Below, in pieces: positions 34,996 to 58,701 of a DNA stretch of 64,000 nucleotides. The notes under the pieces are model-generated. The model had not been told where the DNA came from, ran no database searches, and worked only from the letters and a program-made list of their open reading frames with translations. The position numbers and the translations under genes were made by a program. Every line of letters starts with the position of its first letter. Position 1 is the first letter of the stretch. The stretch comes from an uncultured Chlorobiaceae bacterium (GTDB lineage Bacteria; Bacteroidota; Chlorobiia; Chlorobiales; Chlorobiaceae), in NCBI GenBank assembly GCA_903917955.1, contig CAIXCO010000280.1, positions 3,450 through 67,449 of the forward strand, read 5' to 3'.

Positions 34996-35363
34996 AGCGG
35001 GCAGGAGTGCTCGGTGGCGGAGCATTTGTTTTGTTGCGGCAACTGACAACACCGCAAACTCGTGAATGCTGCCTGCGCTGGTTGGCACTCAAGTTTTAAT
35101 AACTTCCAACAGCAAATCATTCCTGAAATGCTGATACATTGTATAGCGAAATACTCAATCCCCCCTCTTACGCCAGTCAGGAAAAAAACGGAAGCATTTT
35201 TCATGCCAGAATTACGTCCAATAACTTATATTGGAAAAAAAGCGAGGGTGATGCTTATGCCAATTCCAATGTTGAGCAGGTCATAACCAAATTAATCGCC
35301 GAAAAAGGCACATGAAAGGAACTCTACAAAAATGAGCCCGGTTTGAAAAAGGGAGGTACTAAC

Positions 35364-35594
35364 ATGCCAATGACAATAAAAAAAATTGAATCAGAAGCTC
35401 TCAATCTGGATATGCACTCCCGAAGCAGGCTCGTTGGAAAGTTGCTCTTGAGTCTGGATGAGCCAACAGTGTCGGAAGTCGAACAACTTTGGCTGGATGA
35501 AGCAGAAAGGCGACTTGATGATTATCGTGCAGGGAAGGTTCACGGTATTTCTGGTGACGAAGTATTCAAAAGAGCGATAAGCGAGTTGTCATGA
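35364..35594 (+). CDS. Addiction module antitoxin (TIGR02574-like)
   Basis: Small acidic protein EALNL...LLLSLD...WLDEAERRL..YRAG; RBS GGAGG; ATGA overlap with toxin. Confidence 0.85.
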   Translation: MPMTIKKIESEALNLDMHSRSRLVGKLLLSLDEPTVSEVEQLWLDEAERRLDDYRAGKVHGISGDEVFKRAISELS

Positions 35595-35893
35595 ACTTCG
35601 AATTCTTGCCGGAAGCAGATGAAGAGTTTCGGGAGGCTTCCCGCTACTACGAAAATGCAGCTCCAGGGGTAGGCTTGGCATTTATTGCTGAAGTACATAG
35701 GGTAATATCAATAGTTATTTCCAATCCCCTTGCCACAAAACAAATAAGAGGCACTATCCGCAGCAAAGTACTCCTTCATTTTCCTTATAGCTTGTTCTAT
35801 TCCATTGAATCCGATTTAATTTTGATAGTCGCTGTAGCCCATCAAAAAAGGCGTCCAACATACTGGCGAAGCAGATTAAAACGTATGGAATGA
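35591..35893 (+). CDS. RelE/ParE family type II toxin
   Basis: EADEEF.EA..YY, FPYSLFY, IVAVAHQKRRP.YW. Confidence 0.88.
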   Translation: MNFEFLPEADEEFREASRYYENAAPGVGLAFIAEVHRVISIVISNPLATKQIRGTIRSKVLLHFPYSLFYSIESDLILIVAVAHQKRRPTYWRSRLKRME

Positions 35894-36019: not shown

Positions 36020-37223
36020 ATGTCATGTCACTCTTCAATTGTCGGATAAAGTCGTAACAGCTTTATTCTCGCCTTTTCGTTTGTAAAACGCCAATTTATC
36101 TTGGAATTTTTATTGTTTCGTTCCATCTCCCATGCTGCAACTTCCGACCTGACTTCTGTAATCGTATCAATGCGACGGTTCAAGCATTGAGTCGTCAAAA
36201 CTCTCAATTCTATCTCTGCCATATTCAACCAGCTTCCGTGTTTTGGGGTATACACAAACTCGAACCTATCCAATAACTCCTTTGCTTTATTTGGTTTAAG
36301 TGTATGATATAATGATCCTGGCTCATGCGTATTGAGGTTGTCCATCACCAGCGTAATCCGTTTTGCATGCTTGTACTAATTGGCTATTTCTTCAAGGAAT
36401 TTTGCCCAGTCAGGTCTTTTTCTGTTTGTGGTTATTTGAACCATCCGTTTTCCGACCAACGGTTCATTGGCCATAAAAATATTACAGGTACCATTCCTGC
36501 TGTATTCATAATCATATCTGGCCAACTGCCCAGCTCTTGCCGGTATCGGTGTTCTTGTTTCAGCAATCAACTGCTTTGGTGATTCATCCATGCAGACAAC
36601 CGGGTACAGGGGGTCATAAGGTTGCTTATAAACGTCAAGCACCATCTCCATATGTGCCACAAAATTCCCATCACTGAGCGGAGGAATTATCCATCCATCC
36701 TTTTTCCAAGGCTTAATGACGTTTTTTTTAAAACCCTTCGGACGGTCTCATAGGAAATATTGTCCACATAGTCCAGTTCGACTACCTTATCTACCAATAA
36801 GCTAAGGGTCCACCGTTTATGCCCTTCGGGTGCGGGTGAGCAGCTCAGGGCTATCAAATGAGCTTCAAAGTCCCCATCTGCTTTCCTGCGATACACTTGT
36901 ATTGACGGCTTTCCTGTGAGGGCCACATCAAAACCCTCCTCTATAAATCGCTTTTTTACCCGGTCTATCGTTTTCATGCTGATATTCAGAACGCACGCAA
37001 TGGTTTCGTTTATTGAACGTTCTATCTGGTATTCGCCTTCATCACAAGCCAGTAAAATCAAGGCATTCAGCATCGTTTGAGCCGCGCGCTTTCCTTTGTT
37101 ACTGAGTGCATTCAGTTCTTTTCTCTCTTCTTGGGTCAGGGTCACTTTGTACTTCTTCATAGTCAAATCTTGGTTGGTGATTATGAAGAATGAGATAACG
37201 CTTTTATACGAATGACATGACAC
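36020..37223 (-). mobile_element. IS630-family insertion sequence, 1204 bp
   Basis: Terminal inverted repeats aTGTCATGTCAcTC / gTGTCATGTCAtTC flanked by duplicated TA (36018-19 and 37224-25). Confidence 0.9.
36028..37160 (-). pseudogene. IS630 transposase: orfA/orfB joined by -1 slippery site, premature TAG at 36376-78
   Basis: orfA MKKYKVTLT..., slippery TTTTAAAAAAAAC near 36721-36733, VCMDE, MDNLNTH, PKHGSWLNMAE; in-frame TAG between the catalytic D residues. Confidence 0.88.
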
Positions 37224-37290: not shown

Positions 37291-37305
37291 GGGGGCTTTG
37301 CCCCC
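37291..37305 (-). other. GC hairpin (GGGGGC-AAA-GCCCCC) 32 nt downstream of the DUF1566 stop; candidate DGR target-recognition stem-loop
   Basis: Perfect 6-bp GC stem with 3-nt loop, no adjacent U tract. Confidence 0.55.
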
Positions 37306-37337: not shown

Positions 37338-38144
37338 TTAAAAAGCCCGCACAGCCCGAACCCGACCGTGGCGCGTCTTAATGTTCCAGCCCTGGCCCCC
37401 ACTGCCGAAGGACTGGCTCCATGCGCTACCCGCACCGATCTCCGTAGAACTCCAGTAGCCGTTAACCGCAAAACCGCCAACAACATTTCTATTACTGCAT
37501 AGTTGCGCCAGCTCGTCTCTGCTTGGCAAAAACCAGTCGCTACGCCCACCACCTCGATACGCTTGTGCTACCGCAGCAGCACTGTTCGGATAGCGCGATG
37601 GTGAATATTTTGTCAGTATTTTTTCTGTATTTGATCTTCCAGTTCCGATTCCTGTGCTTGTACCCAATAAACCATAAGCATAATCCGGAGCATCGGCATT
37701 CTTGTCTTCGCCTGTACTCCATCGAAAAAAAATTCCTGTTGATCCATAAGTTGCACCCCATTGGTCTGTATACGGTTTGCAAATATCCTCCCTGGCTACA
37801 ATCAAGCCATGCTGCCCACTGGCATCAACGTAAAATACAATGCCTCCGCCATATTCGTCGTTGATTTTGAGTCTCCCTGAAGAGTCAGGGGTAGTATGCG
37901 AAGTATAGTGGGAGCTGTAGGAACTGTATTGAGAAGAGTAGGGAGAATACGAGCTATATTGCGCACGATCGTAGGAGGAGTAGGAGGAGGAGTAGGAGGA
38001 AGAGTACATGTAGTGGGAGTAGTATTCATACCCTGCGAACGCATCACGCCCTAACGCAAGAGAGGTTATTGCGCCTGCAGCACTGAGCGCCAGCATTTTT
38101 ATCGCCTCTCGTCGGTTTATCGTTTTTTCTGGTTTATCATCCAT
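37338..38144 (-). CDS. Tat-exported protein with Tyr/Ser-rich tract and C-terminal DUF1566 (CLec-fold) domain; putative DGR target
   Basis: INRREAIK twin-arginine + hydrophobic + AFA cleavage site; YSSSYSSSYSSY tract; GGIVFY, DWFLPSRDEL, YWSSTE...AW...F...VRAVRAF; RBS AAAGGAGA. Confidence 0.85.
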   Translation of the reverse strand: MDDKPEKTINRREAIKMLALSAAGAITSLALGRDAFAGYEYYSHYMYSSSYSSSYSSYDRAQYSSYSPYSSQYSSYSSHYTSHTTPDSSGRLKINDEYGGGIVFYVDASGQHGLIVAREDICKPYTDQWGATYGSTGIFFRWSTGEDKNADAPDYAYGLLGTSTGIGTGRSNTEKILTKYSPSRYPNSAAAVAQAYRGGGRSDWFLPSRDELAQLCSNRNVVGGFAVNGYWSSTEIGAGSAWSQSFGSGGQGWNIKTRHGRVRAVRAF

Positions 38145-38242
38145 GCTCACTCTCCTTTCGCTTTTGAATTAATGGTTGCAAGTGGATACGATTCAGAGAA
38201 ATTACTTTTTTTAGTCTTTACAGCAAAAACTTTCCCGGGCGC

Positions 38243-39076
38243 TCATTGAACATCTTTGCTGTTGACCATTTTCCACACATCCTCTGCTGTTATGGATGCC
38301 ATGCAATGATTGACCTCGGTACAGGGCACTCCATACTGGCCACCACGAGTTGGGCCAATACAAGCGGGTGTGCATTGTTTTTCAGCTGAAATATGCCAAT
38401 GCCCTTCATAGCCATACACTGATAAAAGCGTTGGCCCCCAGAGAATAATGGCAGGTTTTTTAACCAGTTTGGCAGCATGCATGGCAAAACTATCAGTGGA
38501 TATCAAGAGATCACACTCTTTCAGCAAGGCGATCAATTCAAGCGGCGTGGTGAGCCCCAGCAACGACAGAGCTCCTGGAATATATGGCTCATCCAATCGG
38601 CCTGTCTGAAGAACACTCCACCCCTCTTTCCGAAATCTTGCGGCAAGCGCTGCCCACTCGCGCCTCTCCCACTTTTTGCGTGGTGAATCTGTATTTGCAG
38701 AAAACACAACTCGCGGACGCAGTGGCGGAAACGAGGGCCATGGAAATGATAGCTGCTCCATATTGGGCAGCCACAAACGTTCTGACACCGGCAACGGCAA
38801 ATTGAACTTTTCGGCAAGGCACTGAAATGCACGCCCGCCCTGCCGATAACGTTCCGTGCTCCAATAGTCAGTGCCAATCAGCGTTGCCGTCCGAGGTGGC
38901 GAACCAACAAAACTAATCGCCGGATGATGCGCTAAAAATGGCAGATATTTGGTACGGCGAACAAGTTGAAAACGACAATCAGGATCGCGCTCCAGAGCTA
39001 ACTTGAGCACACCGGAGAGCATCAACGTGTCGCCAAGTCCGCCAAGCGGGTTAATCCAGGTAATCTCTTCCTGCAT
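38243..39076 (-). CDS. Glycosyltransferase family 9 (heptosyltransferase-like)
   Basis: GGLGDTLM, RKKW, CDLLISTDSFAMHAA, IILWGPT, four C-terminal Cys; start at MQEEI with GGAG RBS, overlapping the upstream rSAM stop. Confidence 0.85.
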   Translation of the reverse strand: MQEEITWINPLGGLGDTLMLSGVLKLALERDPDCRFQLVRRTKYLPFLAHHPAISFVGSPPRTATLIGTDYWSTERYRQGGRAFQCLAEKFNLPLPVSERLWLPNMEQLSFPWPSFPPLRPRVVFSANTDSPRKKWERREWAALAARFRKEGWSVLQTGRLDEPYIPGALSLLGLTTPLELIALLKECDLLISTDSFAMHAAKLVKKPAIILWGPTLLSVYGYEGHWHISAEKQCTPACIGPTRGGQYGVPCTEVNHCMASITAEDVWKMVNSKDVQ

Positions 39077-40163
39077 ACAATGCTCCGGTAATCGGTTCAA
39101 AATATTCGGTAATAAATTTTTTTTCGGCACATCCCCACGGGCTTTGACGAAGAAGATCGCCATGAACAGCCCATCCATCCAGAGGGCAACCACCATGGCA
39201 GAGACTCCAGAAACGGCAATCAACACACTCACTATTGCGAAGGAGCGCATTGCGATTTTCGAGCGCCTCCCGTTGTGGATCATTCAACACCACATCAAGA
39301 GTTTTATCCTGCAACATGCCGTAGTCGAGCAAATCCCAGTCTTCGGAACGGCCACAGTGTGAAAGATGCCCGTCGGGAGCTATCGAAATATGGTTACGCA
39401 TACAGCTCCCGCTAAAAACACATCCAAGCGAGCGGTGATTTTCAATAATGTTGCGCACCAATGAGTTGAAAGGTTCAATCTTGCCATAACGTTCACGATG
39501 CGCCCACCACTCAGGAAAAATTTCCCCAAGAAAAGCCACATATTCATCGGGAGTAACTGCAAGGTCAGGCCTGCGGTTATGATACAGCAGCACCGGATGG
39601 ATGTTGAAACCACCACCGGTAATATTGACAAGATGATAAAAAATATCCAACGGGCGTTCAAGCGCTGGCTTGGTCAACACATAGATGATTCCTACCCCTA
39701 TGCCATGCTGTTCAGCAACCATTTTCCCTTGCAGAAACGCCCTGTTGTAGGTGGTGGTATCACAGATGGTTCCGGGCCCCCGTGCGCCATCAAGTGGATC
39801 ATAACTTGAACCAACAGAATGGATTCCAAGCTCCTTGAGCAATCCCGCCCACTCCTCATCCATGAGCATCAAGTTGCTCTGCATGGCGAAAGTGATTCTG
39901 TCTCGTGTTGTTTTACACACCGTTTCAAGGAGTTCCCGGCTCTTGATATAAAAGGGCTTCCCCATCAAGAGCGGTTCACCACCATGCCATATCCAGGTAA
40001 TGTCGCCGTCAGGATACGTTTCCAGGTAATCATTGACACGCTGAAACACAAGCCGCAACGTCGCCTCTGTCATATCATCGAATTGCCTCTTTTTTGTAAC
40101 CACATCGCAGTAAGCACAATGCGATGTACAACGTTCAGTTGGTTTAACAATCAGGGTCGGCAT
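39051..40163 (-). CDS. Radical SAM/SPASM domain protein (anSME/peptide-maturase-like)
   Basis: VKPTERCTSHCAYC, WHGGEPLL, QSN, SPASM cysteines C..C...GHLSHC...CVDCRFWSLCHGGC. Confidence 0.9.
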   Translation of the reverse strand: MPTLIVKPTERCTSHCAYCDVVTKKRQFDDMTEATLRLVFQRVNDYLETYPDGDITWIWHGGEPLLMGKPFYIKSRELLETVCKTTRDRITFAMQSNLMLMDEEWAGLLKELGIHSVGSSYDPLDGARGPGTICDTTTYNRAFLQGKMVAEQHGIGVGIIYVLTKPALERPLDIFYHLVNITGGGFNIHPVLLYHNRRPDLAVTPDEYVAFLGEIFPEWWAHRERYGKIEPFNSLVRNIIENHRSLGCVFSGSCMRNHISIAPDGHLSHCGRSEDWDLLDYGMLQDKTLDVVLNDPQREALENRNALLRNSECVDCRFWSLCHGGCPLDGWAVHGDLLRQSPWGCAEKKFITEYFEPITGALYAGRDYLD

Positions 40164-40612
40164 ACTGCTCCTCCTGGCTGTTTTTGCCTGTAGAGACGAG
40201 CATCAATAATTTCAGTGAAAAAGTCGCGGCATTGCGATGTGCATTGCTCTTTCCACTCGCCATAGCAGGCACGCCACCCCGGACAGTTGATGCAAGAGTC
40301 TCGGTTAATAAAACGCTCGTTCAACGCCTCTTGTTGCGGCGGAGGTTGTTCAATCATCGTCTCAAATGGCTCAATAATGGCATGTGAACAACGCCCGTAC
40401 ACAGCATAGACAAGAAGCTCACGTAATGCTTCCCAGTCAATCGTACCAAGAGAGAGATCCAGTGTTACCCGAACTCCCAGCGATGCAACTATCCTTGCTT
40501 TGGTCAGGTTTTCTTCAGTGGCAGGCAAGGAGACCGTTTCAGCTTGGAGATTCATCAGTTGTGGAATCCATTCTGCTGGACGACAGAATAAATCTACAGG
40601 TTTTGCAAGCAT
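40151..40612 (-). CDS. Small protein with SPASM-like Cys cluster
   Basis: CINCPGWRAC...CTSQC; overlaps both neighbours, suggesting translational coupling. Confidence 0.7.
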   Translation of the reverse strand: MLAKPVDLFCRPAEWIPQLMNLQAETVSLPATEENLTKARIVASLGVRVTLDLSLGTIDWEALRELLVYAVYGRCSHAIIEPFETMIEQPPPQQEALNERFINRDSCINCPGWRACYGEWKEQCTSQCRDFFTEIIDARLYRQKQPGGAVCRP

Positions 40613-41607
40613 TTATTAATCTCCGGAAGACGGATAAAAGGTTCATCTTTCATAGCTTTGAGTATATGGGCAGCACAACCGCCTTCGCAACGTTTTATTT
40701 CCCGTTGTTGACATTCATCGCACTCATAATGAATGCCTCCGGCTTCGGCACGAATATCATTCATTTGTGAGCGAAAATGGTCAAGCAACTCCTCAAGAGA
40801 GCTGAATTCATAGAGCGAACGTGGCGCAAGACGTGACAGCGGAAAGCATGACCAGACCATCATATCCGGCCCAATATCAATTGCGGGACCACAACCGAAA
40901 TTCAGTGGTGACGAAATCTTGAACAGCTTCCCCAGCTCTTCGTCAGTAAAAGAGCATAGCGTAAAGCCACAGTCAAGCCCAATCTGCAACCGGTTACGAG
41001 CAAAATCCTCGCTAAAAGAGAGCAACCGTTTCATTGCAGGACGAATTGAGCTGATTGAGAGACATTGGTTATCAGCACCGGGAATGGGCGCAGCAAGACC
41101 AAGACGCAGGTGACGCTTAAGCCCGTATCGATTGACGAGGTCAAACAGAAAGGTGAGGTCAAAGTCCGGTCGGTAAATGTTAAACCCTGGACCGCACTTC
41201 GTACCAAACTGCTCCAGAAAATATTCAACACACTCATTTTCTTTTTTCGGAGAAAGCGTTGGTTCATTCAGGTTGCAGACAAAATCCAACGGTATTTCCG
41301 GATCCGTCGGGAGAAAATGCCGTAAACTATCTGTCAGTTCCTGCGGTATCGCCGCACTGGTAAAAACCGTAACCTGAAAGCCACGTTGAAGCAGATAGAG
41401 TACCATGTCCGGAAAATGGCGATGCAGTAACGGTTCACCACCAAGCAACGACAGTCGCTTTTCGCCAGATGATTCAAAAAAATCAACAACATAGATCAAG
41501 TCCTCCCAACTGACCTCAGCATGTAAATCATTTGTACTCATGTGATCACGAGCAAAACAGTAAGGACATGTGCGGACGCACCTCCTGGTTAACAGCAGAT
41601 TAGCCAT
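40594..41607 (-). CDS. Radical SAM protein with C-terminal SPASM/twitch-like domain
   Basis: CVRTCPYC, LLGGEPLLH, CGPAIDIGPD..VWSCF, CDEC......CEGGC. Confidence 0.88.
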   Translation of the reverse strand: MANLLLTRRCVRTCPYCFARDHMSTNDLHAEVSWEDLIYVVDFFESSGEKRLSLLGGEPLLHRHFPDMVLYLLQRGFQVTVFTSAAIPQELTDSLRHFLPTDPEIPLDFVCNLNEPTLSPKKENECVEYFLEQFGTKCGPGFNIYRPDFDLTFLFDLVNRYGLKRHLRLGLAAPIPGADNQCLSISSIRPAMKRLLSFSEDFARNRLQIGLDCGFTLCSFTDEELGKLFKISSPLNFGCGPAIDIGPDMMVWSCFPLSRLAPRSLYEFSSLEELLDHFRSQMNDIRAEAGGIHYECDECQQREIKRCEGGCAAHILKAMKDEPFIRLPEINKCLQNL

Positions 41608-41740: not shown

Positions 41741-42584
41741 TTATTTTTTCCCTTGTGACTGCATCGACATTTTTGGCATCAATGATTGAGGGATGTGTAA
41801 TTCCGGCAGCGGCCAGCAACTCCCCGGCAAGTCATTTCGACTGAGGGATTTTCTGACAGCTTGACTCTTTGAGGGTGACGATTGTGCTGCGTATGGCCCC
41901 AAGTTCATCAATTCCTTCCAGCACGGAGCATTCACATTTTTTCCAGAGCTCTGATAGCAGTCTCTCAATTTTATAGGCAAGCATGACGGCAAAGACATGA
42001 CCACGGGTACTGGCTTCGGTTCGTACATGAACCGGTCTGATTTCCAGATGACTTTGTTTGAACGTCCGGAAAGCATGTTCCACTTTGGCCAGATCTTTGT
42101 ACCGGTCATGAACTTCTTTGGTCGAAAGAAGCTCTTTCTTTACATCAGTTTTGATCACATAACACCCATCGAGCAAAGCTGATCTTTTTAGGATTTCTTC
42201 TGTAAAACTTTCTAATTCAAGCACATCACAGGCGCCATAACTTGCAGCCATCCTGACCGCACCCAAGCGTGAACCTTGCCCGATCAATCGAGCCATGATC
42301 TGCCACAAGGCAAGCACTCCCTGACGGGTACTGCCCAGTGCCTTACTGATACCGAGTCTCTCAGCAAGCGTATTGAGCACAAACACCACGCCAACCCGGA
42401 AGGCCTTCATGAAGCTCAACATCCTCGACATGCAACAGAGCCGTCAAATTATCTTTGTACTTCAGGGCAAGTTTAATGGCGGCAATTTCACCTTCTGAAC
42501 ATTTTGAAATTTTGCCCAAAGTGCGATTCTTCACCTTGCCATCTTCACGATAGGATTCGCGAAAAAGATAACGCTGGTAGGTTT
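41741..42584 (-). pseudogene. IS1634-family transposase remnant (internally deleted, frameshifted)
   Basis: N-terminal RYLFRESYREDGKVKNRTL and C-terminal LDGCYVIKTD...YKDLAKVEHAFRTFK..LEIRPVH...RGHVF; central region missing. Confidence 0.8.
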
Positions 42585-42941: not shown

Positions 42942-43703
42942 TCATATCGGGTTAATTCCTCTGTGCAGGTTACGGTATTGTAGCTTGTAGCCGTCAGCAG
43001 CATCAAAACAATCCTGTGCTGTACCAGGAAGAATGTCCGGGTTCAGAAGAGCTTGCATAACTTCTGGTTCATTCCGGAATTTTTCAAACCAAAGGCCAAA
43101 GAACCCGATTCCTTTTGCCCATTGAACCATTGATAAGGAAGCCAAATGAGCATGACCAGCCGCTTTGGCAACTTGATACAGGGTGAATGCTGATTCAACA
43201 GCAACAAGAGCGTCTCTTCGCTTTAGCCAACGTATGTCAACAATATTATTTCTTCTATCGATGTTTGCCAAACCCAGCAATGCAATGGTGTTTTCTGCTT
43301 TGCTCTGCTGAATCAATTCAAGATCTTCAGCTTTCTGAACGATTGCAGCATCTTCATGATTCGGATGAATACGGATTTGAAATGGAAGCAACGTGTTATT
43401 GTTTTCCGGAAAGTAGTAATCGTTAAAATCAACAGGCGTATTGCCCTTTGCATTGTTGCAGGGGCCGCAGGCAAACAGCATGTTCTCCCAGCCCAATGGA
43501 TTGCCAGAAGTGTACCCTGCTGGCGGGTTTTTGGGAACCACGTGTTCCATTTGCAGACTGTGGCTCAAGGGCATATTGCAATAGGCGCAATAGTACCCTA
43601 TACGATCAATCAATCTCTTGCGCCACAGCGTATAATCATGAACAGAAATCGGATCACCGGTCTCATCAGTCGGGCAGGAGCCCTTGTCCAATGGCCGCAT
43701 CAT
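42942..43703 (-). CDS. HNH endonuclease (Septu PtuB-like)
   Basis: CAYC...MEHVVPK...WENMLFACGPCNNAK; directly downstream of an ABC-type ATPase. Confidence 0.8.
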   Translation of the reverse strand: MMRPLDKGSCPTDETGDPISVHDYTLWRKRLIDRIGYYCAYCNMPLSHSLQMEHVVPKNPPAGYTSGNPLGWENMLFACGPCNNAKGNTPVDFNDYYFPENNNTLLPFQIRIHPNHEDAAIVQKAEDLELIQQSKAENTIALLGLANIDRRNNIVDIRWLKRRDALVAVESAFTLYQVAKAAGHAHLASLSMVQWAKGIGFFGLWFEKFRNEPEVMQALLNPDILPGTAQDCFDAADGYKLQYRNLHRGINPI

Positions 43704-43704
43704 C

Positions 43705-45042
43705 CTACTTTTGTACTGCCAGTTTATTCAATTCCAGAAAGGCTCTTAACCCCGGATCTGAAACATTGTCTATTTCAGCCTGTATTTCTACTTCCGATAC
43801 TCCCGTTTTCAGTTTACCCAATATCAATTGAGCAATATCATGTTTGCCTGTATTTTCATCAGAAAATGCGCTTTCAACACCCATGACACTTGTTGCCACA
43901 TCATCAATTTTCAAGCTGTTCAAGAGAACGTCAGTCAACCGGTCAAGATTGAGCAGTTCATCAGAAGCAAGCGACTGAACAATAAATGCGGAATGTGTTG
44001 TCACGACAAACTGAATATTCGGAAACGCACTCTTTAAATCTTTGACAATATGCCGTTGCCACTTTGGATGGAGGTGCATATCCAGTCCATCAATCAAAGC
44101 AATACCTCTCGACTCCTTTACAGCATCTCTCCCCAGAAAGCCATTAAGCACAACACACCTGAACGCCAATTCTGCTACCAGATTGAGCATGGCTTTCAAA
44201 CCATCACTCATGTTGGAGTGTGTCTTTTTTCCTGGATCTTGTTCATCAATGTTAACAACAGCTTCAAGCTCCTGGTAATGATGATTATATCCTACATCTT
44301 CCAGATAGGGAATTGCCGTTGAAATAGCTTCAAAGACCGCTTCCCGGGTACCTTCAAACTCTTTTTTGTACTTCAGCTCATTATCGTAATTATGAAGCCA
44401 CTCAATCACACCATCAAAATCTACCTTGTCAGAGAGTGCTGCCAAATAGCCCTTCTCCATTCTGCTTCTGTTTTGTTGGGCCTTTTTACCCTTGCGTAAC
44501 TGTGCCACAGTTCTTTCAGTGCCGAAACTGGCCAAAACAGGCAAAAGCGCTTTATTATGAAACCCTCTTCCTGATTCCACCAAATCCCTGATGGCATCAA
44601 TCAAATCTCCTGCATATTTCCTGTTATGGCTTGTTGTACCATTAGCCAGCATTACTCTGCTCCATTCTATTGGCCGTTCCTGAAAAACAAAACGGCCTTT
44701 ACCAATATTGAAAGGTTCATCCTTGCCAATCAATATGAATGTATCGCTTAACAAGCTGCCTGTAACTCTGATAAGTGTCTCATCCTTGCTGGAAATATAA
44801 TCCCTCTCCTCAGCAGCCCATTTAACAAATTTCTCCTGCCTTTTAAATTGTCTCCGATAAAGAGGTGATGCTGGAAGGGGCAAACATTGCAAACAAGCAC
44901 CCAAGCTGACCTGTAACGCATGAAGCAGTGATGATTTACCCATGCCATTATCACCGATGGCAACAGTAAAGTTTGAGTTCAAAAAAATCTCTTTTTTCTC
45001 AAACCCCCTGAAATTCTGGATATATAATCTGCTGATATGCAT
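43705..45042 (-). CDS. ABC-type ATPase (AAA_15/AAA_21, Septu PtuA-like)
   Basis: NFRGF, Walker A GDNGMGKSS, MSDG, Walker B LIDGLDMHLHPKWQ (E>G), TTHS. Confidence 0.8.
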   Translation of the reverse strand: MHISRLYIQNFRGFEKKEIFLNSNFTVAIGDNGMGKSSLLHALQVSLGACLQCLPLPASPLYRRQFKRQEKFVKWAAEERDYISSKDETLIRVTGSLLSDTFILIGKDEPFNIGKGRFVFQERPIEWSRVMLANGTTSHNRKYAGDLIDAIRDLVESGRGFHNKALLPVLASFGTERTVAQLRKGKKAQQNRSRMEKGYLAALSDKVDFDGVIEWLHNYDNELKYKKEFEGTREAVFEAISTAIPYLEDVGYNHHYQELEAVVNIDEQDPGKKTHSNMSDGLKAMLNLVAELAFRCVVLNGFLGRDAVKESRGIALIDGLDMHLHPKWQRHIVKDLKSAFPNIQFVVTTHSAFIVQSLASDELLNLDRLTDVLLNSLKIDDVATSVMGVESAFSDENTGKHDIAQLILGKLKTGVSEVEIQAEIDNVSDPGLRAFLELNKLAVQK

Positions 45043-45678: not shown

Positions 45679-47031
45679 TCAACAGACTTTCCCCTCTTTC
45701 TGGAACTCTCTTTCAATTCCTGCCTTGATCCTCCCGATGGTAATTTCTTTTGCATTACTGGCCAGCGCATCAATACAACAGAACTGTACCACGTTAACTA
45801 TACTTGCTCCGCTGATCTCATACTTCTTTGCAATTTCCATCAGTTCTGCTGCACCCGGAACGTTGAGGCTGTTTTTAGGGGGAAACGCTTTCTGCCAGAT
45901 CGAAAGCCGTTCTTCAAGTCGCGGCAAAGGAAAATAGATCACCGACTGGAAACGCCGGATAAAGGCGTCGTCAATGTTGGATCTGAAATTTGAAGCAAGG
46001 ATAACCAGACCATCGTGGCACTCTATACGCTGCAAAAGATACGCCACCTCCTGATTGGCATACTTGTCGTGGGCGTCGCGAATATTGGTTCTTTTGCCAA
46101 AGAGAGCATCCGCTTCGTCGAAAAACAAAATCCAGTTTTTTTTCTTTGAGCGCTCAAAAAGTTGTGCAAGATTTTTTTCGGTTTCACCGATAAACTTGGA
46201 CACCACCATGGAGAGATCGATCCGGAAAACTTCCCTTCCGGTTTTTTTCCCAAGAATCATTGCTGCAAGTGTCTTTCCCGTACCCGGTGGACCGTGAAAC
46301 AAAACCCTGTACCCCGGCTTCAGCAATCGCTTCATGTTCCACTCTTGCATCATCACCTCTTGGTATCGCAACCAATTCTCAAGTTCCTTCAGTTGTGAAA
46401 ACGTACTTGCAGGCAGTACCAGATCGTTTTCCGTTAAATCGGTGGTAATGTATTCAGCCGGAAAATCCATCGACATCCGGGGGCGCACAAATTTCCCCTG
46501 AACAAACAGTTCAAGGTAGTCATTCGCCATTACAAGCTTGCCACTCAGGTGGGGCTCACCTTGCTCCGACTCATCCAGCCAGATGAGACGATTCTGCGCA
46601 AAAAAGTGTTCCGAACCGAAAAGTTTGAGATAGTCGAAGCGCTGATGCAGACTGTTTCCAGCCAGAATAAATAATGCCGTCTCCCCTGTTGGCAAAAAAC
46701 CGCGGAATTGTTTGCCCCGAACACCGCCGATCTGTGGAAAATCGCCGACCTGCGAGAAGTGCTGAGCGATGACCGTATCAAAAAAATTCGGCTGGACATG
46801 CGGGGCAAGGGCAAGCAACAGAACAATGATCTCCTCGGGGCACAATTGATTCGCCAGAATAAAGGTGGATAGTTCAGAATCATCTTTCACCGATACGATT
46901 TTCTTTATATCCACCAGTTTTGGAGGCATATTTCCCGGTTCAAAAAAGTGTTTTAGTCGCTGCCTGAAAATCTCAGCAAGAAAGTCAAGGTAACGTGTTA
47001 CCGCAAAGGCATTCTTTTCGGAGGATGTCAT
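45679..47031 (-). CDS. eCIS AAA+ ATPase (Afp15/Pvc15-like)
   Basis: GPPGTGKT, DLSMVVSKFIGETEKNL, FFDEADALFGKR, DAHDKYANQE; start at MTSSEK. Confidence 0.88.
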   Translation of the reverse strand: MTSSEKNAFAVTRYLDFLAEIFRQRLKHFFEPGNMPPKLVDIKKIVSVKDDSELSTFILANQLCPEEIIVLLLALAPHVQPNFFDTVIAQHFSQVGDFPQIGGVRGKQFRGFLPTGETALFILAGNSLHQRFDYLKLFGSEHFFAQNRLIWLDESEQGEPHLSGKLVMANDYLELFVQGKFVRPRMSMDFPAEYITTDLTENDLVLPASTFSQLKELENWLRYQEVMMQEWNMKRLLKPGYRVLFHGPPGTGKTLAAMILGKKTGREVFRIDLSMVVSKFIGETEKNLAQLFERSKKKNWILFFDEADALFGKRTNIRDAHDKYANQEVAYLLQRIECHDGLVILASNFRSNIDDAFIRRFQSVIYFPLPRLEERLSIWQKAFPPKNSLNVPGAAELMEIAKKYEISGASIVNVVQFCCIDALASNAKEITIGRIKAGIEREFQKEGKVC

Positions 47032-47096
47032 GATCGCAACGCTTTCGACTTTTGGTGTCAGAAATTCAAAGGCTGTTTTTCTCTTCCCCGATATTC
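46845..47096. repeat. Diverged ~250-bp direct repeat, copy A (5' end of the AAA ATPase gene)
   Basis: Aligns with 48081-48333 at an offset of ~1236 nt. Confidence 0.9.
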
Positions 47097-47221
47097 GCCT
47101 GGCCAGAGGATAACCTTGATAGTGATAAAAAATTATCAGGTAACCATACGCCAGTAACATTGATTCGAAATACGCTCCCGCTCCTCGGGCATAGGTGAAT
47201 ATCAGTACCCGATTTGCTGCT

Positions 47222-47983
47222 TTACGCGTCGGGCACTTCTCCAAATCCCAATAATTTGTCCATGCGACTGAATACATAACTGAAGCCCTGCACATTGGGA
47301 CTTTTATTACCTTCAATTGTATACAAAAAGCCATCTTTTAACTGATGAACCAAGCCAATATGCCCTTTACCGCTTGAGGGCTGGTCACGCCACCAGACCA
47401 CAATATCGCCGGGCTTTGGCGCATAACCACTACCTGGTTTATTGGCCCAACCGCGTTGTTGAAATGCACGCAAAATATCGCGGGCACCAACTTTATAAGG
47501 ATAAGGAGAACCTGCCGGATGCTGAGAGAAACAATAACTCACAAAGCCGGCACACCAGGGATTTCCCTCCGGCACTATGCCATGCAGATATTTTTTTACA
47601 AACGGTCCGCAATTGTTTCCGCCAACTTCACCAGCCCCTGATTTTAATTCACTGATCGCAATCTGCAGAGCTGCTCTTCCCCGTGCGCTGCCTCCCATAG
47701 CTTCCGGTGGCATAACCTTATAATCAACAGCACTATGAGTCTCAATCAATGGCTTGGGATTTGTAAGGCTCCACCAGCTAAGATCGCCCACTTTGCCATC
47801 CACAACTAAAGGTTGACCCTGTTTATCCAAATTTTGCGCCTGAAAAGCCCGTACCGCCTGATAGGTTGCGTTATCGAACAGCCCATTAATTTCTTCGTTA
47901 GTCAAAAAGCCTTTATCCATCAACAAGGTTTGCAATTCTTTGACCTCAGAACCTTGATCACCTTTTTTTAATAGTACGGACAT
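47222..47983 (-). CDS. Peptidoglycan-binding domain + CHAP amidase
   Basis: LKKGDQGSEVKELQ..L, AVRAFQ, VDGKVG; PWCAGFVS, PGDIV, GHIGLV, TIEGN. Confidence 0.88.
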   Translation of the reverse strand: MSVLLKKGDQGSEVKELQTLLMDKGFLTNEEINGLFDNATYQAVRAFQAQNLDKQGQPLVVDGKVGDLSWWSLTNPKPLIETHSAVDYKVMPPEAMGGSARGRAALQIAISELKSGAGEVGGNNCGPFVKKYLHGIVPEGNPWCAGFVSYCFSQHPAGSPYPYKVGARDILRAFQQRGWANKPGSGYAPKPGDIVVWWRDQPSSGKGHIGLVHQLKDGFLYTIEGNKSPNVQGFSYVFSRMDKLLGFGEVPDA

Positions 47984-48078
47984 TTTACTCTCCCGAGTTT
48001 GATATTATTATGCAATCAATTTTACTTAGGACTTACCGAACAAATCGTTTCTAACAAGCTTATACCCTTTTCATAGTG

Positions 48079-48267
48079 CTATTGGTGACTGAAAATAAAA
48101 GTCGATAGTTCGCAATCATCTTTTATCAATACGATCTTTTTTACATCCAGCCGTTTTCGAAGATGGTTACCAATATCGAATGAGTGCTTAAACCGCTGCC
48201 TGAAAATCTCAACCAGAAAGTCAATGTAACGTGTTACCGCAAGGGCATTTTTTTCGGAAGCGGTCAT
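48079..48267 (-). pseudogene. Truncated paralogue of the eCIS AAA ATPase N-terminus (repeat copy B)
   Basis: MTASEKNALAVTRYIDFL versus MTSSEKNAFAVTRYLDFL; stops after 62 aa. Confidence 0.85.
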
Positions 48268-48293
48268 AATCGCAACGCTTTCAACTTTTGGTG

Positions 48294-48545
48294 TCAGGAA
48301 TTCAACGGCTGTTTTTTCTCTTCTCCGATTTTGGCTTTGCTGATAGCCGGGGTATTTTCTTTCTGTTCATCTGAAGCCGCTTTACGAATAGTCTGTACCT
48401 GCTCTTCGGTTTCACCTTGTTTTGCCTGAGCCTGGAAAAATGCACCCTCTCCAGAATGGCCGTTATCCGGCGAAAAGAATGGTTGCTGGCTCTTAACCGG
48501 TGGCTGTTCCTGCCGTTGAAGCGGTCGTTTTGAAAATTTTTTCAT
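48294..48545 (-). CDS. Small hydrophilic protein resembling DUF4157-protein N-terminal leaders
   Basis: ATGA overlap with the TPR gene, GAGG RBS; PFFSPD...AFFQAQ motif. Confidence 0.55.
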   Translation of the reverse strand: MKKFSKRPLQRQEQPPVKSQQPFFSPDNGHSGEGAFFQAQAKQGETEEQVQTIRKAASDEQKENTPAISKAKIGEEKKQPLNS

Positions 48546-49525
48546 GGTAGCACCTCAGGGATTGATTTCAGCAGTTCTACTGCCTTCTGTTTATAGTCAT
48601 CGTTGTCGCTCTCAATGGTTTGAAGCAACATTCTTTTGGCCAATTTGACATCACCTCTTTGCAACATGAGAACGCCTTTATAATAGAGTGCCTTTGAATT
48701 TTGCGGCTCCTGCTCAAGAGTAATCGTGAAATGCTCAAGGGCTGATTCCGCGTCACCAGCCGATAGCTCAATAACTGCAAGGTTATTGCGTGCATCAGTA
48801 TGGCTTGGCTCCAGAAGAAGAATCCGGCGAAGCTCAGCCACAGCTTCCTCGCTTTGACCGGTTTTAAGATAGGCCATTGCCAGGTTGTGACGTACCTCGG
48901 CATCCTCCGGCGTGAGTCCCAGCGCCCGCTTGAAGCACTTGATTGCCGAGCCAAAATCATATTTGACAAAATAGATAATGCCCAAAAGTGAATAAAGTCG
49001 AGGGTTCTCCTCTTCAAGTGGAAGTGCTCGATTCAACTCTTCGAGCGCTTCATCCAGTTTCCGTTGCTGAATCAGAGAGTAAGCCAGATTCAAAAGAATA
49101 CCCGATTCGGGTTTGATAAGGTAACTCCTCTTCCAGTGATACTCCGACCTCTCACTCTCTCCCTTCAACATAAAGAGCTTGGCAAGACTTTCATGAGCAT
49201 AAAATTCATCGGCATTAAGCGATAAGGCTTTTGTTAAAACCTCTTCAGCCTCATCCCATCGCTGCATCAGCAGATAAAGCTGACCGAGGTTGCTATATGC
49301 GGTGGAATAGCCCTTGTCGAGTTCTATTGAGCGAAAGTATTCCTTTTCGGACTCCCCAAAACGCTGAAGTTGCATCAAAAGAAAGCCCAGGTTGTTGTGG
49401 GCCACGGCGCTGGACTGATCAAGTTCAAGAGCCTGTCGATAGCGTTCTTCAGCTTCCGGAAAATTCCCTGAAAGGTGAAGCGCAGCCCCTTCTTTCAGTA
49501 ATCTCTTCATCTCTTCGTTCATCAC
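48542..49525 (-). CDS. Tetratricopeptide repeat protein
   Basis: Multiple TPRs (AHNNLG, AYSNLG, HNLAMAY, ARNNLA). Confidence 0.9.
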   Translation of the reverse strand: MMNEEMKRLLKEGAALHLSGNFPEAEERYRQALELDQSSAVAHNNLGFLLMQLQRFGESEKEYFRSIELDKGYSTAYSNLGQLYLLMQRWDEAEEVLTKALSLNADEFYAHESLAKLFMLKGESERSEYHWKRSYLIKPESGILLNLAYSLIQQRKLDEALEELNRALPLEEENPRLYSLLGIIYFVKYDFGSAIKCFKRALGLTPEDAEVRHNLAMAYLKTGQSEEAVAELRRILLLEPSHTDARNNLAVIELSAGDAESALEHFTITLEQEPQNSKALYYKGVLMLQRGDVKLAKRMLLQTIESDNDDYKQKAVELLKSIPEVLP

Positions 49526-49542
49526 AGCAGCACTGTTTAAGT

Positions 49543-52500
49543 TTAGAATTCATTGACCAGCGGATCGACAATCTGCTCCCTGACCTTTTTTGTCATATCA
49601 TCAAGACTGGGATAGGTGAATTTGAGGTTTTCAAATGCAACATCCGCCTTGCCATCCTTATAAGCCAACGGGAATTCGAAACCAATTTCCAGCCCCGTAT
49701 CAATCTCTTTCTTGAAAAGCGGCCATTGCCAGGTCTTCGAGATTTCAAGTGGCCACACTCCGGCCGAGGCTCTGACGAAGAGATCGCCGCTGAAACCGAG
49801 AATGGCGGCTACCTTGGCATTGACAAGCCCGTTGAGCTCAAACCCGGTTTTTGGCGAATATTTCACCTCGGTATGAAACACTGGCTGCTTAGCTGCCGCT
49901 TTGATGAAGGCTGAAAGGTTGATGCCGCCGGTCAGTGAGGCAATGGCGATACTGGCTGAAAGCCCGAAGTCAACTCCGGCCCTGATACCCGCCTCAGCGA
50001 TGAATTCAAAATCGGCACCCCCGGTGATCGACATCTCATCCGGGTGGGCGGGATTGTAGGTAATCTCAGCAGCCACCTTGGTCAGGCTGCCCGGCCCAAT
50101 CTGAACATCGGCCTCCAGCCTGGGGGTAATCACCGCTTCTATGCCTATGGTAGCCACCCCCAAAGGAATACCAAACAGCGGAATATGGATCGGTGGAATG
50201 GTGATGAGGGGTTTGTTTTCCACACTGAAAAGCTTGGGCACAACCTCCAGCTTCTCCGGAAGCTTGATGCCGCCCTTGACTTCAATCTCGCCGTTTTCCA
50301 GCAGTGTTACCCCGGCGTTCACCACAAGTTTGTCGGTAATCTTCAACTCCAGATCGCTTTTGCCGTAAACCTTGTAGTCCGGAAGGGCTTCACCGGTAGG
50401 CTTGCTCTCGGCATTGATGGCCCGGTTGGTGATCCCGATGTTCAAGTTTCCTTTAAGGCGACCCTTCTCATAGGAGGCCCTAGCATCGACGAGGAAAATA
50501 TCGTTATGGAATTCAAAGTCAACCTGTGTGTCGATTCCTGGTATATCGGGGGTAATCTTGCCCTTGCCGCTGAAATCGTACTCTTCGCCTTTTTTGATGA
50601 GGTTTAGCTTGCCTTCACCATCCTTGATTCCGGGAAGTTTCCCGATCTTGACACTGCCTTCAATCTCCGAGCTCTCTTCAGAGAACTTGATCTTCAGCGT
50701 TACATCCTTGACTCCCTTCAGAGTAACTTCCGCTGTTCCGTTGGCTTCCAGAAGATTATTGGCATAAGCAACGTTGATTGTTGCCGAGTTGATTCCTTTG
50801 ACGCTGCCGTTACCAATTTGAAGCACGCCACTGGCCGACCATCCATCCTTATTGTTGTACTCTACCTCAATGCCAGCAGCACCTTTTTTGAAGAGCTTCG
50901 GGTCAAAATCAAAACGACCCTTGATACCAAAATCCCCATTGCTCTTTCCCAGGCCGGAGATCTGCCCCTTACCGAGTTTACTGATCTCGAAGAATACGTC
51001 ACCTTCAACAAAGACCCCCTTGTTGCCAGCGCCGATAGTAAGCAGGGCATCGTTGATTTTGAATGGCGGCGGAACCTTGATTTCCCCAGCAGTGATGGTT
51101 TTGCTGATGCCGAACTCATCGCCTTCCATGAAGAAATCCAGATCGATTCCTTTGATAATATCCAGGGTCGGATGGATCCTTCCTTTAACAGCCAATCCCT
51201 TATCCTTCAAAAACTGCGCACTGTCAACCGTGACCGGGCTCATGCCCGGCAGTTCAAGGCCGACAAGGAGTTGTTCAAGTCCGCCTTTTCCTTTTTGGCC
51301 CTTTCTGGGTATTGAACCACCATGATCAACACCGTCCATTTTATGGATAGGGATTTTAATTTTTTTTTCTTTTCCTTTACTCCCATAAAAATTGAACTTA
51401 GCTTCAAAACTCCCAACTTCATCTCCCACATTTTTTCCGGCTGCGCTTCCGAATTGCGGCGGCTCAAACTTTATCTGCGGGTTACTGTTGTTTAAAGCAA
51501 GAATATCCGCCTTTTTCATTGCCGTACCTCCAATTGGCGAGGTATATATGGTTTCGTCACCGTCCTTTCCCTTTATTGCATCCATATCACTCGTTTCCAT
51601 CGGCTCGAAATGCTCAAGATGCTTTCCTGCTTCAATTTCATCCAATTTCCAGTAATACTCCGCAAAAGATGCTTTTGTAAATCTTGCTTCAGCATCATTG
51701 AACTGGATATTGCTAAAGGTGATCTTATACTTTTTTTTTGCGTCCTCTATTGCAGGAAGTTTTTGCTTACTATCAAGAGCCTGTTTTTTTGCATCTTCTG
51801 AAGCGAGAAAGTTGTTGACAAGCCGTTCGATTGAACCAGCAAGTAACGCTCCTGCGGAACGGTTGGCCGAGATATTCAACAGTTCCATGTTGTCAGGTGT
51901 ATTCGTACCACCGATCTGCAACTCCTGGATATGATCAACATCGTAGGCTGAGGCTTTGCCATCCCTGCTCCAGGTCGGGACAAGGGCATTATCAGCCAAG
52001 GTCTTTTGGGTGCCGATAAGCTTTAATGTGCCCCATTTCAGGTAGTAACAAAAGGAGCCGCCCTCCTCTTTGTAAGCATTTTTGGCTTTGGCTTTTTCTG
52101 CTAACTTTTCCACCCCCTTCTTAACGTTGGGCTCAACCTTCTTCTCCCATTCTGCGCTCTGGTTTGTAACTGTCCTTTTGTAGTTTTTCGTACGGGTGAC
52201 AGGGGCAACATTCTTACCACTATTTCGCTCTCTGAATTTGGGGAGATAAAGTGTTTCTCCTATAACAATATCTTCGTTAAAGTCGATCGTTGACTTTTTA
52301 TCGGACAGCGGATTTCCTGTTTTCTGCACCTGCTTCTGCAAACCCTCCTGCTGCTGCACTGTATGCGTCAGTTCATGGGCAAGAAGGTGTTTGCCCGAAG
52401 AGGTGTCGGGATTGTATTTGCCTTCGTTGAAATAGATGTCGCTTCCGTGCGTAAAAGCCTGGGCATTCAGGTTTTGGCTCAACTGGGTAGCTTCGCCGCC

Positions 52501-53007
52501 CGTATGGAGCTTAACACCGCTGAAATCCTTGCCGAAGCCGCTTTCCATTTCGCCCCGCGTCTTGTTGTCCATCGGGGAACCCTGACCTTTTGATGCCTGC
52601 AACTGGCTTTCAATATTGCTTGATTCTGCGGCCCCGCTCTCCTCTTTCTCCTTTTTCTGCACATTGGCGTTCTGCTCACCGTCACTCTCAAAAAAGGGTT
52701 TGCGGTGAATATCGCGTTCCAGCTCGCCATTGGGCTCCTCTTTTTTGCTCAGCCGCTCTTCCTGCTCACCAGGTTTGGTTGCAGGCGCCGACACTGGTGG
52801 GGCCGACTGACTCACGACCTTGTCGGCCATGGCATCAGCCTGCTGCTCGTATGGATCTCCACGTTCACCAACTTTCAGTTTTGCCTGTATACCCTGAGCA
52901 TTGAAAAACGATGATTTTTTGTCAGACGAAAAAAACTGCTCCCTTTTGCCTGAAATCTCTTTCGGCTGAGAGCTGTTGGACGGAGGAGCCTTAACCGTTT
53001 CTTTCAT
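49543..53007 (-). CDS. DUF4157 (eCIS core) domain protein with HNH-like motif; putative effector
   Basis: IQAKLKVG...EQQADAMADKV, DFSGVKLH, AQAFTHGSDIYF, LLAHELTHTVQQ; YDVDHIQELQIGG...N...N. Confidence 0.85.
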   Translation of the reverse strand: MKETVKAPPSNSSQPKEISGKREQFFSSDKKSSFFNAQGIQAKLKVGERGDPYEQQADAMADKVVSQSAPPVSAPATKPGEQEERLSKKEEPNGELERDIHRKPFFESDGEQNANVQKKEKEESGAAESSNIESQLQASKGQGSPMDNKTRGEMESGFGKDFSGVKLHTGGEATQLSQNLNAQAFTHGSDIYFNEGKYNPDTSSGKHLLAHELTHTVQQQEGLQKQVQKTGNPLSDKKSTIDFNEDIVIGETLYLPKFRERNSGKNVAPVTRTKNYKRTVTNQSAEWEKKVEPNVKKGVEKLAEKAKAKNAYKEEGGSFCYYLKWGTLKLIGTQKTLADNALVPTWSRDGKASAYDVDHIQELQIGGTNTPDNMELLNISANRSAGALLAGSIERLVNNFLASEDAKKQALDSKQKLPAIEDAKKKYKITFSNIQFNDAEARFTKASFAEYYWKLDEIEAGKHLEHFEPMETSDMDAIKGKDGDETIYTSPIGGTAMKKADILALNNSNPQIKFEPPQFGSAAGKNVGDEVGSFEAKFNFYGSKGKEKKIKIPIHKMDGVDHGGSIPRKGQKGKGGLEQLLVGLELPGMSPVTVDSAQFLKDKGLAVKGRIHPTLDIIKGIDLDFFMEGDEFGISKTITAGEIKVPPPFKINDALLTIGAGNKGVFVEGDVFFEISKLGKGQISGLGKSNGDFGIKGRFDFDPKLFKKGAAGIEVEYNNKDGWSASGVLQIGNGSVKGINSATINVAYANNLLEANGTAEVTLKGVKDVTLKIKFSEESSEIEGSVKIGKLPGIKDGEGKLNLIKKGEEYDFSGKGKITPDIPGIDTQVDFEFHNDIFLVDARASYEKGRLKGNLNIGITNRAINAESKPTGEALPDYKVYGKSDLELKITDKLVVNAGVTLLENGEIEVKGGIKLPEKLEVVPKLFSVENKPLITIPPIHIPLFGIPLGVATIGIEAVITPRLEADVQIGPGSLTKVAAEITYNPAHPDEMSITGGADFEFIAEAGIRAGVDFGLSASIAIASLTGGINLSAFIKAAAKQPVFHTEVKYSPKTGFELNGLVNAKVAAILGFSGDLFVRASAGVWPLEISKTWQWPLFKKEIDTGLEIGFEFPLAYKDGKADVAFENLKFTYPSLDDMTKKVREQIVDPLVNEF

Positions 53008-53027
53008 ATTTTTATGCAGATGCAGGT

Positions 53028-58624: not shown

Positions 58625-58701
58625 ATTGCGTAATATTATATTGACTGGATAATCTGTTTAAGCACTCAGTGCACATTCCCCGAAACATTAGTTGTTCTCT
58701 T

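Follow-up and report, generated by a model that had tools for sequence, protein, structure and literature searches.

A radical SAM operon with a Tyr/Ser-rich precursor fused to a DGR-type lectin-fold head in Chlorobiaceae: predicted variant of a widespread, unnamed maturation family

The stretch of DNA analyzed here, hereafter the window, comprises 64,000 nucleotides from an uncultured Chlorobiaceae bacterium (positions 3,450 to 67,449 of contig CAIXCO010000280.1, assembly GCA_903917955.1; genome G000 in what follows, 87% complete). At positions 37,338 to 41,607 it holds a compact block of five open reading frames (ORFs), all on the minus strand, in which a pair of enzymes of the radical S-adenosylmethionine (rSAM) type, a small partner protein and a glycosyltransferase precede a protein with a predicted export leader, a Tyr/Ser-rich core and a C-type lectin-fold (CLec) head resembling the targets of diversity-generating retroelements (DGRs). 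An earlier note on this DNA, made from the sequence alone, had described five co-oriented genes, the first four overlapping and the fifth following about 100 nt later, and the ORFs were recovered at the coordinates it gave, with overlaps of 19, 13 and 26 nt and a gap of 92 nt before the last gene if the glycosyltransferase starts at 39076. The first gene, R1 (40594..41607), encodes a 337-aa enzyme with a Pfam Radical_SAM match, a CxxxCxxC motif and C-terminal SPASM-type cysteines. The partner gene (40151..40612; 153 aa, no Pfam match) is followed by R2 (39051..40163; 370 aa, Radical_SAM and a weak SPASM match), a peptide-maturase-like enzyme and candidate cross-linker with PDB matches to anSMEcpe and ChlB, and by a GT9 glycosyltransferase gene (38243..39076; Glyco_transf_9, PF01075), a candidate heptosyltransferase whose longest open frame (38243-39283) would give 346 aa and whose homologue alignment favours the ATG at 39076, giving probably 277 aa. 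The last gene (37338..38150) encodes the precursor or effector, which has 270 aa, or 268 if translation begins with the ATG at 38144. Its parts are a twin-arginine leader (residues 1-39; 38034..38150), delimited by family leader counts and with predicted cleavage after Ala39, a Tyr/Ser core (residues 40-87; 37890..38033), recognized by composition and a shuffle test, and a CLec domain (37341..37877; Pfam Lcl_C, equal to DUF1566, above cut-off) placed by tree in a long-insertion subtype. The domain includes a DGR variable repeat (37346..37478), delimited by comparison with a near-identical strain and by its codon-position pattern, and a GC-rich hairpin (37291..37305) lies 3' of the stop codon, as it does behind other DGR targets of this genome; such hairpins presumably have a role in target recognition. 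The insertion sequence (IS) remnants that the earlier note had seen on both sides of the block were identified by Pfam as pieces of an IS630-type transposase (HTH/DDE_3; 36028..37223) and of a DDE_Tnp_1 transposase (41741..42431), both on the minus strand.

The enzymes of this block belong to a family that extends well beyond the Chlorobiaceae. A set of 88 loci was assembled from those retrieved with R1, namely eight in genomes and the 80 best of 123 in metagenomes; 40 of the 88 are flanked on each side by at least 1 kb of free sequence, and these fall into 21 clusters when R1 is grouped at 70% identity. The gene order R1, partner, R2, GT9 is kept wherever contigs permit; the partner is present in 82 of the 88 loci, the six misses stopping at contig edges, and GT9 in 37 of the 40 well-flanked ones. 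The earlier note had tied its interpretation to the recurrence of a Tyr/Ser-rich partner beside homologous rSAM/GT9 clusters, and the neighbourhoods bear it out: with a precursor defined as a same-strand ORF having an Arg-Arg leader and at least five Tyr in 20 residues, 38 of the 40 well-flanked loci encode one, the remaining two (L057 and L079) have ORFs with Arg-Arg leaders and fewer Tyr or a variant leader, and none of 4299 opposite-strand ORFs qualifies. These counts support the Tyr/Ser tract as a conserved partner of the enzymes. Going by record names, carriers occur in the Bacteroidales, Gemmatimonadetes, Chlorobiaceae, Nitrospirae and Thermodesulfobacteriota; the partner profile yields 401 clusters at 50% identity and R1-like proteins form 926 clusters at 90% identity, no relatives of R1 were found in viral contigs, and no Pfam or NCBIfam model covers the partner or the stand-alone precursors. 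The distribution is patchy, with four carriers among 401 genomes sampled from the phylum, G000 included, all in one genus. In another genome of this genus (G098; L151, L152), R1, a full-length partner and R2 lie at contig ends and are 41-44% identical to those of the window, the precursor being absent from the assembled contigs; this copy appears to be a separate acquisition. The block is real, as the earlier note had it; the wider family, with mostly stand-alone precursors, had been missed. Judged by these comparisons, the parent system appears to be a widespread, unnamed protein-maturation family, and the DGR head a narrow Chlorobiaceae addition to it.

Several loci depart from the basic layout. 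Extra copies of R2 occur in L024, L045 and L048, and in L047 (1918-9138) an extra R2 copy is found together with an extra partner gene, a duplication in view of which the partner may pair with R2. In L027, L031, L046 and L080 a gene for a B12-binding rSAM methyltransferase stands directly after the precursor. A separate cluster in L016 (6456-16857; genome G042) comprises five rSAM genes, a Cys-rich repeat precursor with an Arg-Arg leader (13973-14437) and an R1-like enzyme joined to a U32-like domain; this last protein was considered as an R1-partner fusion and rejected as part of another cluster.

R1 scores far below all NCBIfam cut-offs, can be assigned to no named family, and has no close solved relative. 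The best NCBIfam scores of R2 are with DynA (134 bits, cut-off 450) and anSME (123, cut-off 349); it has no N-terminal extension with a recognition element (RRE) for peptides that are made on the ribosome and modified after translation (RiPPs), ChlB is among its three PDB matches, and it aligns with anSMEcpe over residues 3-329, keeping the SPASM cysteines and carrying Val and Gly at the positions of anSME Tyr24 and Asp277, which we take to be catalytic. The earlier description of the 153-aa protein as SPASM-like proved apt, and can be refined to an internally shortened member of a family of about 287 aa with an rSAM/SPASM fold. Among 150 partner homologues the N-terminal CxxxCxxC is found in none, and CxxCx5C in 149. 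The model of a full-length partner (pLDDT 89.9) resembles anSME (Z 13.7, root-mean-square deviation 4.2 over 271 residues), ChlB (Z 12.3) and CteB-type structures, whereas the 153-aa model alone reaches a best Z of 6.9, within background; profile comparison with R1 and R2 is weak (probability 0.5 and 14.8), the placement coming from fold search alone. The partner is hence predicted to be a dead rSAM/SPASM fold. GT9 keeps the motifs of its family, including the N-terminal GD, and its weak PDB matches are lipopolysaccharide (LPS) heptosyltransferases; it scores below all NCBIfam cut-offs for these enzymes. Ratios of non-synonymous to synonymous substitution (dN/dS) were computed between the window and L018, a more distant Chlorobiaceae locus with the same fusion, and are rough because dS (1.2-2.6) is near saturation: 0.09 for R1, 0.09 for the partner, 0.13 for R2, 0.12 for GT9, 0.04 for the leader, 0.13 for the CLec scaffold and 0.41 for the variable repeat. 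The shortened partner does not seem to be decaying, because its ratio is similar to those of R1, R2, GT9, the leader and the CLec scaffold, and the CLec fusion appears to be under purifying selection.

Of the 48 aa in the core of the window precursor, 14 are Tyr and 19 are Ser. No other tract of this kind occurs among the 6640 ORFs of 80 aa or more in its genome, and the length of the tract differs among strains (48, 69 and 96 aa). Ser, Asn or Asp stands two residues after Tyr in 9 of 14 cases in the window (shuffle mean 5.7, p 0.03), in 15 of 21 in L017, the locus with a 99%-identical R1, and in 19 of 26 in L018. Over the family, precursors were reduced to 36 non-redundant ones (61 before collapse by leader, the window and L018 collapsing into L017), in whose cores Tyr makes up 40% and Ser 28%. 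Tyr is followed by Tyr at i+3 with a frequency of 0.65 against 0.42 in 500 shuffles (z 19.6). At i+2, Ser (414 observed, 243 shuffled), Asn (116 and 81) and Asp (62 and 35) are in excess and Gly is depleted (23 and 47). All these figures are inflated by tandem duplication of 9-nt units, but the Tyr-x-Ser/Asn/Asp triplet occurs in unrelated lineages. A long C-terminal domain is present in two of the 36 precursors, as CLec in the fusion described here and, in L020 (13902-14669), as a Peptidase_S74 intramolecular chaperone domain, suggesting a trimeric fibre in that case.

The leader consensus of the 36 precursors is RR[ED]A[LI][KR]R[IM]A, and a lipobox-like Cys ends 17 of them. The window leader combines a non-canonical RREAIK with a hydrophobic stretch and an Ala-x-Ala site (Ala-Phe-Ala), and has Ala in the usual Phe place; neither the Pfam nor the NCBIfam TAT_signal model scored. 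Because the leader ends in Ala-Phe-Ala without Cys, the product is predicted to be soluble, and the term adhesin used in the earlier note found no backing: no lipobox or other anchor was found in the precursor, unlike in the Legionella lipoprotein LdtA (PMC5758913; statements on papers cited by accession refer to the accessible parts of their texts). The export route and the sugar that it had proposed fare better when judged by gene neighbourhood. Twin-arginine translocation (Tat) is backed by the presence of tatC in 12 of the 88 loci, ten of them in one clade of gut Bacteroidales, the others being L054 and L079; in the gut clade tatC lies directly behind the precursor, with a TatA-like ORF between them seen in two loci, and in G000 it lies elsewhere in the genome. 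Heptose transfer is likewise made credible by homologues of gmhA, hldE and hldD in 9, 10 and 12 of the 88 loci, from three lineages (the gut clade, L045 and L048), G000 encoding gmhA and rfaE (domain I) elsewhere. The gut loci (L075:90-16000 and nine related ones) are elaborate, with gmhA-hldE-hldD, PP2C, kinase-FGE and 235-aa genes, the enzymes, the precursor, tatA-tatC and FHA genes; in six of them the kinase-FGE genes were searched for a template/variable repeat pair, and none was found.

The evidence for DGR activity at this gene comes chiefly from the near-identical locus L017, which differs from the window at eight positions in about 3.3 kb of enzyme genes and at 41 within the 117 nt of 37353-37469, besides the change in tract length. 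The L017 genome carries, on another contig, a template repeat adjoining a reverse transcriptase (RT), and all 23 mismatches between the L017 repeat and this template (133 nt) fall at template adenines, as do 21 of 21 and 19 of 19 in two other targets of that genome. DGR targeting of the CLec end is thereby shown in L017. In the window strain we infer it. The window repeat has 12 non-adenine mismatches to the template of the L017 genome; its fixed positions are common to two kinase-CLec genes on contig C338 of G000 and to four repeats in genome G061, and in the three G000 repeats 33 of 34 variable columns lie at codon positions 1-2. The earlier reading of the precursor as a DGR-type lectin-fold protein thus stands for L017, and stands less firmly for the window, whose repeat fits neither template seen. 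Since the window repeat does not fit the template of the L017 genome, the two strains would have used different templates to rewrite this gene. The heads of the fusions form one long-insertion CLec clade together with a target on contig C48 (support 100/99), and the fusion itself was seen in two Chlorobiaceae lineages only. Among the sequencing runs listed as carriers none is of RNA. Contigs from four runs of one study show a single repeat in X1 and breaks at repeat and tract in X2-X4; as run contigs drop rare variants, they say nothing on ongoing diversification.

G000 contains related elements. A complete DGR on C48 (4600-11800; L002, L007, L010) consists of a pentapeptide-CLec target, a template, a 409-aa RT and a TIR-like-CLec target; in both flanking targets every mismatch falls on a template adenine (17 of 17 and 14 of 14), and the RT/template cassette is not cognate to the window repeat. 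A second RT, on C306 (1-2088; L003), lies beside an FGE-domain gene and resembles another DGR type, with similar loci in G060 and G061. Contig C338 (451-10738) encodes the two kinase-CLec proteins, whose repeats share the window's template type, along with FHA proteins, a PP2C-CLec protein, and kinase and FGE-domain genes; the kinase/PP2C/FHA/CLec-fold theme common to C338 and the gut loci hints at a link to signalling modules.

In layout, the closest analogue of the block is the HXS system (HxsABCD), whose two rSAM enzymes act with a partner to mature an exported protein built from X-x-Ser repeats and a C-terminal binding domain, and which sets a precedent for periplasmic antiphage action (PMC13128918). 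The window system is not a member of it. The HxsB model reaches 49.9 of 370 bits and the HxsC model 17.2 of 267.9, nothing in G000 exceeds the HxsB cut-off, and precursor residues 40-90 contain no HxS motif; moreover, Tyr takes the place of His, Asn and Asp are also found at the third place, the leader is of the twin-arginine type, a GT9 is present, the partner has a predicted dead rSAM/SPASM fold, and the head is a DGR-targeted CLec domain where HXS has a peptidoglycan-binding domain. Triceptides, which are defined by aromatic-x-x motifs, likewise set an rSAM/SPASM enzyme beside a precursor with repeats of such motifs; their three-residue cyclophane synthases comprise XyeB, GrrM/OscB, FxsB, YhhB, ChlB and HtkB, and YDR is native for ChlB (PMC11499958), the sequence match of R2 and fold match of the partner. 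By comparison, the present system has three rSAM-fold proteins and a GT9, an export signal as leader, long arrays, a fused domain and a putative cross-link, and R2 is below the cut-off of every named family in NCBIfam. The CLec head in turn recalls Legionella LdtA, presumably also exported by Tat. DUF1566 CLec targets of DGRs, LdtA and remote targets among them, share the C-terminal adenine-specific repeat, the distant RT and varied N-termini (PMC5758913, PMC7517822); in contrast to them, the window protein lacks a lipobox, its N-terminus is a RiPP-like core within its own maturase operon, and near-identical strains appear to use different templates on the same gene. DAG-RiPP precursors also carry export signals and are in some cases fused to large proteins (PMC13056109), and the lipobox-like Cys of many leaders here is reminiscent of them, but their chemistry is that of MNIO enzymes, the terms radical, rSAM, SPASM and Tat do not occur in the accessible text of PMC13056109, and the window block has no MNIO among its five genes by Pfam and no Cys in its leader. 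With anSME, R2 shares the fold and the SPASM cysteine pattern, whereas catalytic positions and substrate motif are not kept. No description of the family or of a link between RiPPs and DGRs was found in the freely accessible main texts searched, though the triceptide network tables, for example, could list these enzymes, and the accessible parts of PMC9062424 and PMC11953309 do not describe the family; the earlier note's statement that no described system joins RiPP-like maturation with DGR diversification holds within this scope.

Taken together, these observations suggest that the block is probably a Chlorobiaceae variant of the maturation system in which rSAM-modified Tyr triplets, predicted Tat export and a DGR-targeted CLec head are combined, and it seems rather likely that both machines, radical maturation and DGR, act on the same chain. 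The conserved RRxALKR leader would recruit the enzymes and double as export signal. R2 might then link the Tyr ring to the C-beta of residue i+2, with a loss of 2 Da per triplet as in triceptides, and so produce a stiff stapled stalk, an outcome to which we give a little less than an even chance; R1 and the predicted dead partner would add a second radical modification, as HxsC does with HxsD; and GT9 would probably transfer heptose from ADP-heptose (+192 Da) onto the hydroxyls of Ser or Tyr. The folded and modified protein would very likely be exported by Tat and cut by signal peptidase I after Ala39, yielding a soluble periplasmic or released protein. The DGR, whose adenine-specific action is seen in L017, would rewrite the last 45 or so codons, and the outcome would be a binding protein whose stalk is stiffened by chemical modification and whose ligand pocket varies.

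A number of observations weigh against this proposal. On the side of chemistry, R2 falls far short of the cut-offs of cyclophane synthases (GrrM 70 of 310 bits, XyeB 48 of 450, FxsB 49 of 370), the partner is shortened by about half in the Chlorobiaceae, the triplet enrichment in the window core is modest (9 of 14, p 0.03), duplication of 9-nt units inflates the family-wide periodicity, and some cores are of period 4 or poly-Tyr. TatC and heptose genes are missing from the majority of loci, and a single clade accounts for 10 of the 12 that have TatC. As regards the head, just three of 112 CLec homologues, standing for the window, the L017 type and L018, have leader and tract, the L018 repeat differs from the nearest of the templates seen by 15 non-adenine mismatches and may have drifted, and the window repeat has 20 non-adenine mismatches to the C48 template of its own genome. 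Its cognate template was found neither on C48 nor beside the other RTs of G000, G060 and G061, and a guessed template pattern, which may be wrong, matched in none of 77 genus genomes; the window repeat may therefore now be frozen.

The block and its surroundings form an island directly upstream of the rpsL-rpsG-fusA-tufA operon. A Septu-like PtuA/PtuB pair (42942-45042) lies 1.3 kb upstream of the block, and the C48 DGR adjoins an AAA-ATPase/HNH pair resembling it; a ParE-type toxin-antitoxin pair (35343-35893) lies downstream. Positions 45679-64000 of the window are occupied by a block resembling a contractile injection system, with an AAA ATPase, a CHAP/PG-binding protein, a TPR protein, an eCIS-core/HNH protein and large ORFs that we assume to be baseplate-like.

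Radical chemistry other than three-residue cyclophanes (epimerization, Tyr-Tyr or Tyr-O ether formation, hydroxylation or methylation) could account for the enzymes, the triplets then reflecting a beta-solenoid or amyloid-like stalk. We regard this as a serious if somewhat improbable alternative, in keeping with two active-type rSAM enzymes without family assignment, with the B12-rSAM methyltransferase genes of 4 of the 88 loci, with the existence of poly-Tyr and period-4 cores, and with the unexplained +8 Da, not -2 Da, obtained for HXS (PMC13128918). It accords less well with the composition of i+2, where the three residues whose C-beta is activated are in excess and Gly, which has no C-beta, is depleted (23 against 47), or with the PDB relatives of R2, namely anSME and ChlB, a cyclophane synthase. 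Oxidation of Ser to formylglycine by an anSME-type activity, one of the options in the earlier note, is very improbable: despite the alignment with anSMEcpe (residues 3-329 of R2) and the retained SPASM cysteines, in R2 Val and Gly replace Tyr24 and Asp277 (roles as assumed above), its score is 123 bits against a cut-off of 349, and (C/S)xPxR, presumably the anSME substrate motif, is absent from the window precursor and occurs in 2 of 60 other precursors.

Two further alternatives concern the head and the role of the system, and both seem to us unlikely. The CLec head could be a passenger, a mobile DGR-target cassette that landed in frame on a RiPP precursor, with the stalk peptide as the active product or the whole system in decay. 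The 19 Lcl_C matches in G000 sit on many N-termini (kinases, TIR and phosphatase genes), the fusion occurs in two lineages only, 34 of 36 precursors lack a long C-terminal domain, and the IS flanks and shortened partner would fit such a history; yet the fusion has been kept in two lineages at dS above 1 and with differing gene order, dN/dS is 0.13 for the CLec scaffold and 0.09 for the partner, both heads belong to a single long-insertion clade (100/99), and the L020 member shows another C-terminal domain (S74 chaperone). The other alternative is an HXS-like envelope defence, which could also sit on top of the maturation system proposed here: a matured periplasmic protein would block or sense phage entry, the DGR head providing changing specificity. 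The shared architecture, in which two rSAM enzymes and a small partner accompany an exported protein that combines X-x-Ser repeats with a binding domain at its C-terminus, speaks for it (PMC13128918), as do the nearby PtuAB and ParE pairs. Nonetheless, no defence enrichment was found: of 91 flanking proteins covering 24 loci, selected from 170 listed ORFs by leaving out four redundant gut loci, precursors and shorter ORFs, six have PADLOC matches at 1e-25, these being B12-rSAM, ABC and kinase domains; the repeats of HxsA, for which DNA binding is proposed, are basic (PMC13128918), whereas neutral or acidic Tyr cores are found here; none of the Hxs models is reached; and the L018 copy lies between RNase R and a photolyase-like gene.

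If the maturation system proposed here is correct, the window protein would be the first case, in the literature searched, of RiPP-type radical chemistry and DGR hypermutation converging on one polypeptide. It is conceivable, if speculative and on present evidence unlikely, that the product is an antibody-like exported envelope receptor with a stapled, heptosylated stalk, a DGR-hypermutated tip and exchangeable templates, adaptive against phages or other cells. The near-identical strain pair suggests that a remote DGR target may switch to whichever template the cell carries. More generally, the parent family is large, extends to human-gut Bacteroidales, has no curated model and includes a predicted dead rSAM/SPASM partner, and the Chlorobiaceae fusion would offer a predicted soluble, folded handle on the chemistry of its otherwise sticky Tyr-rich cores.

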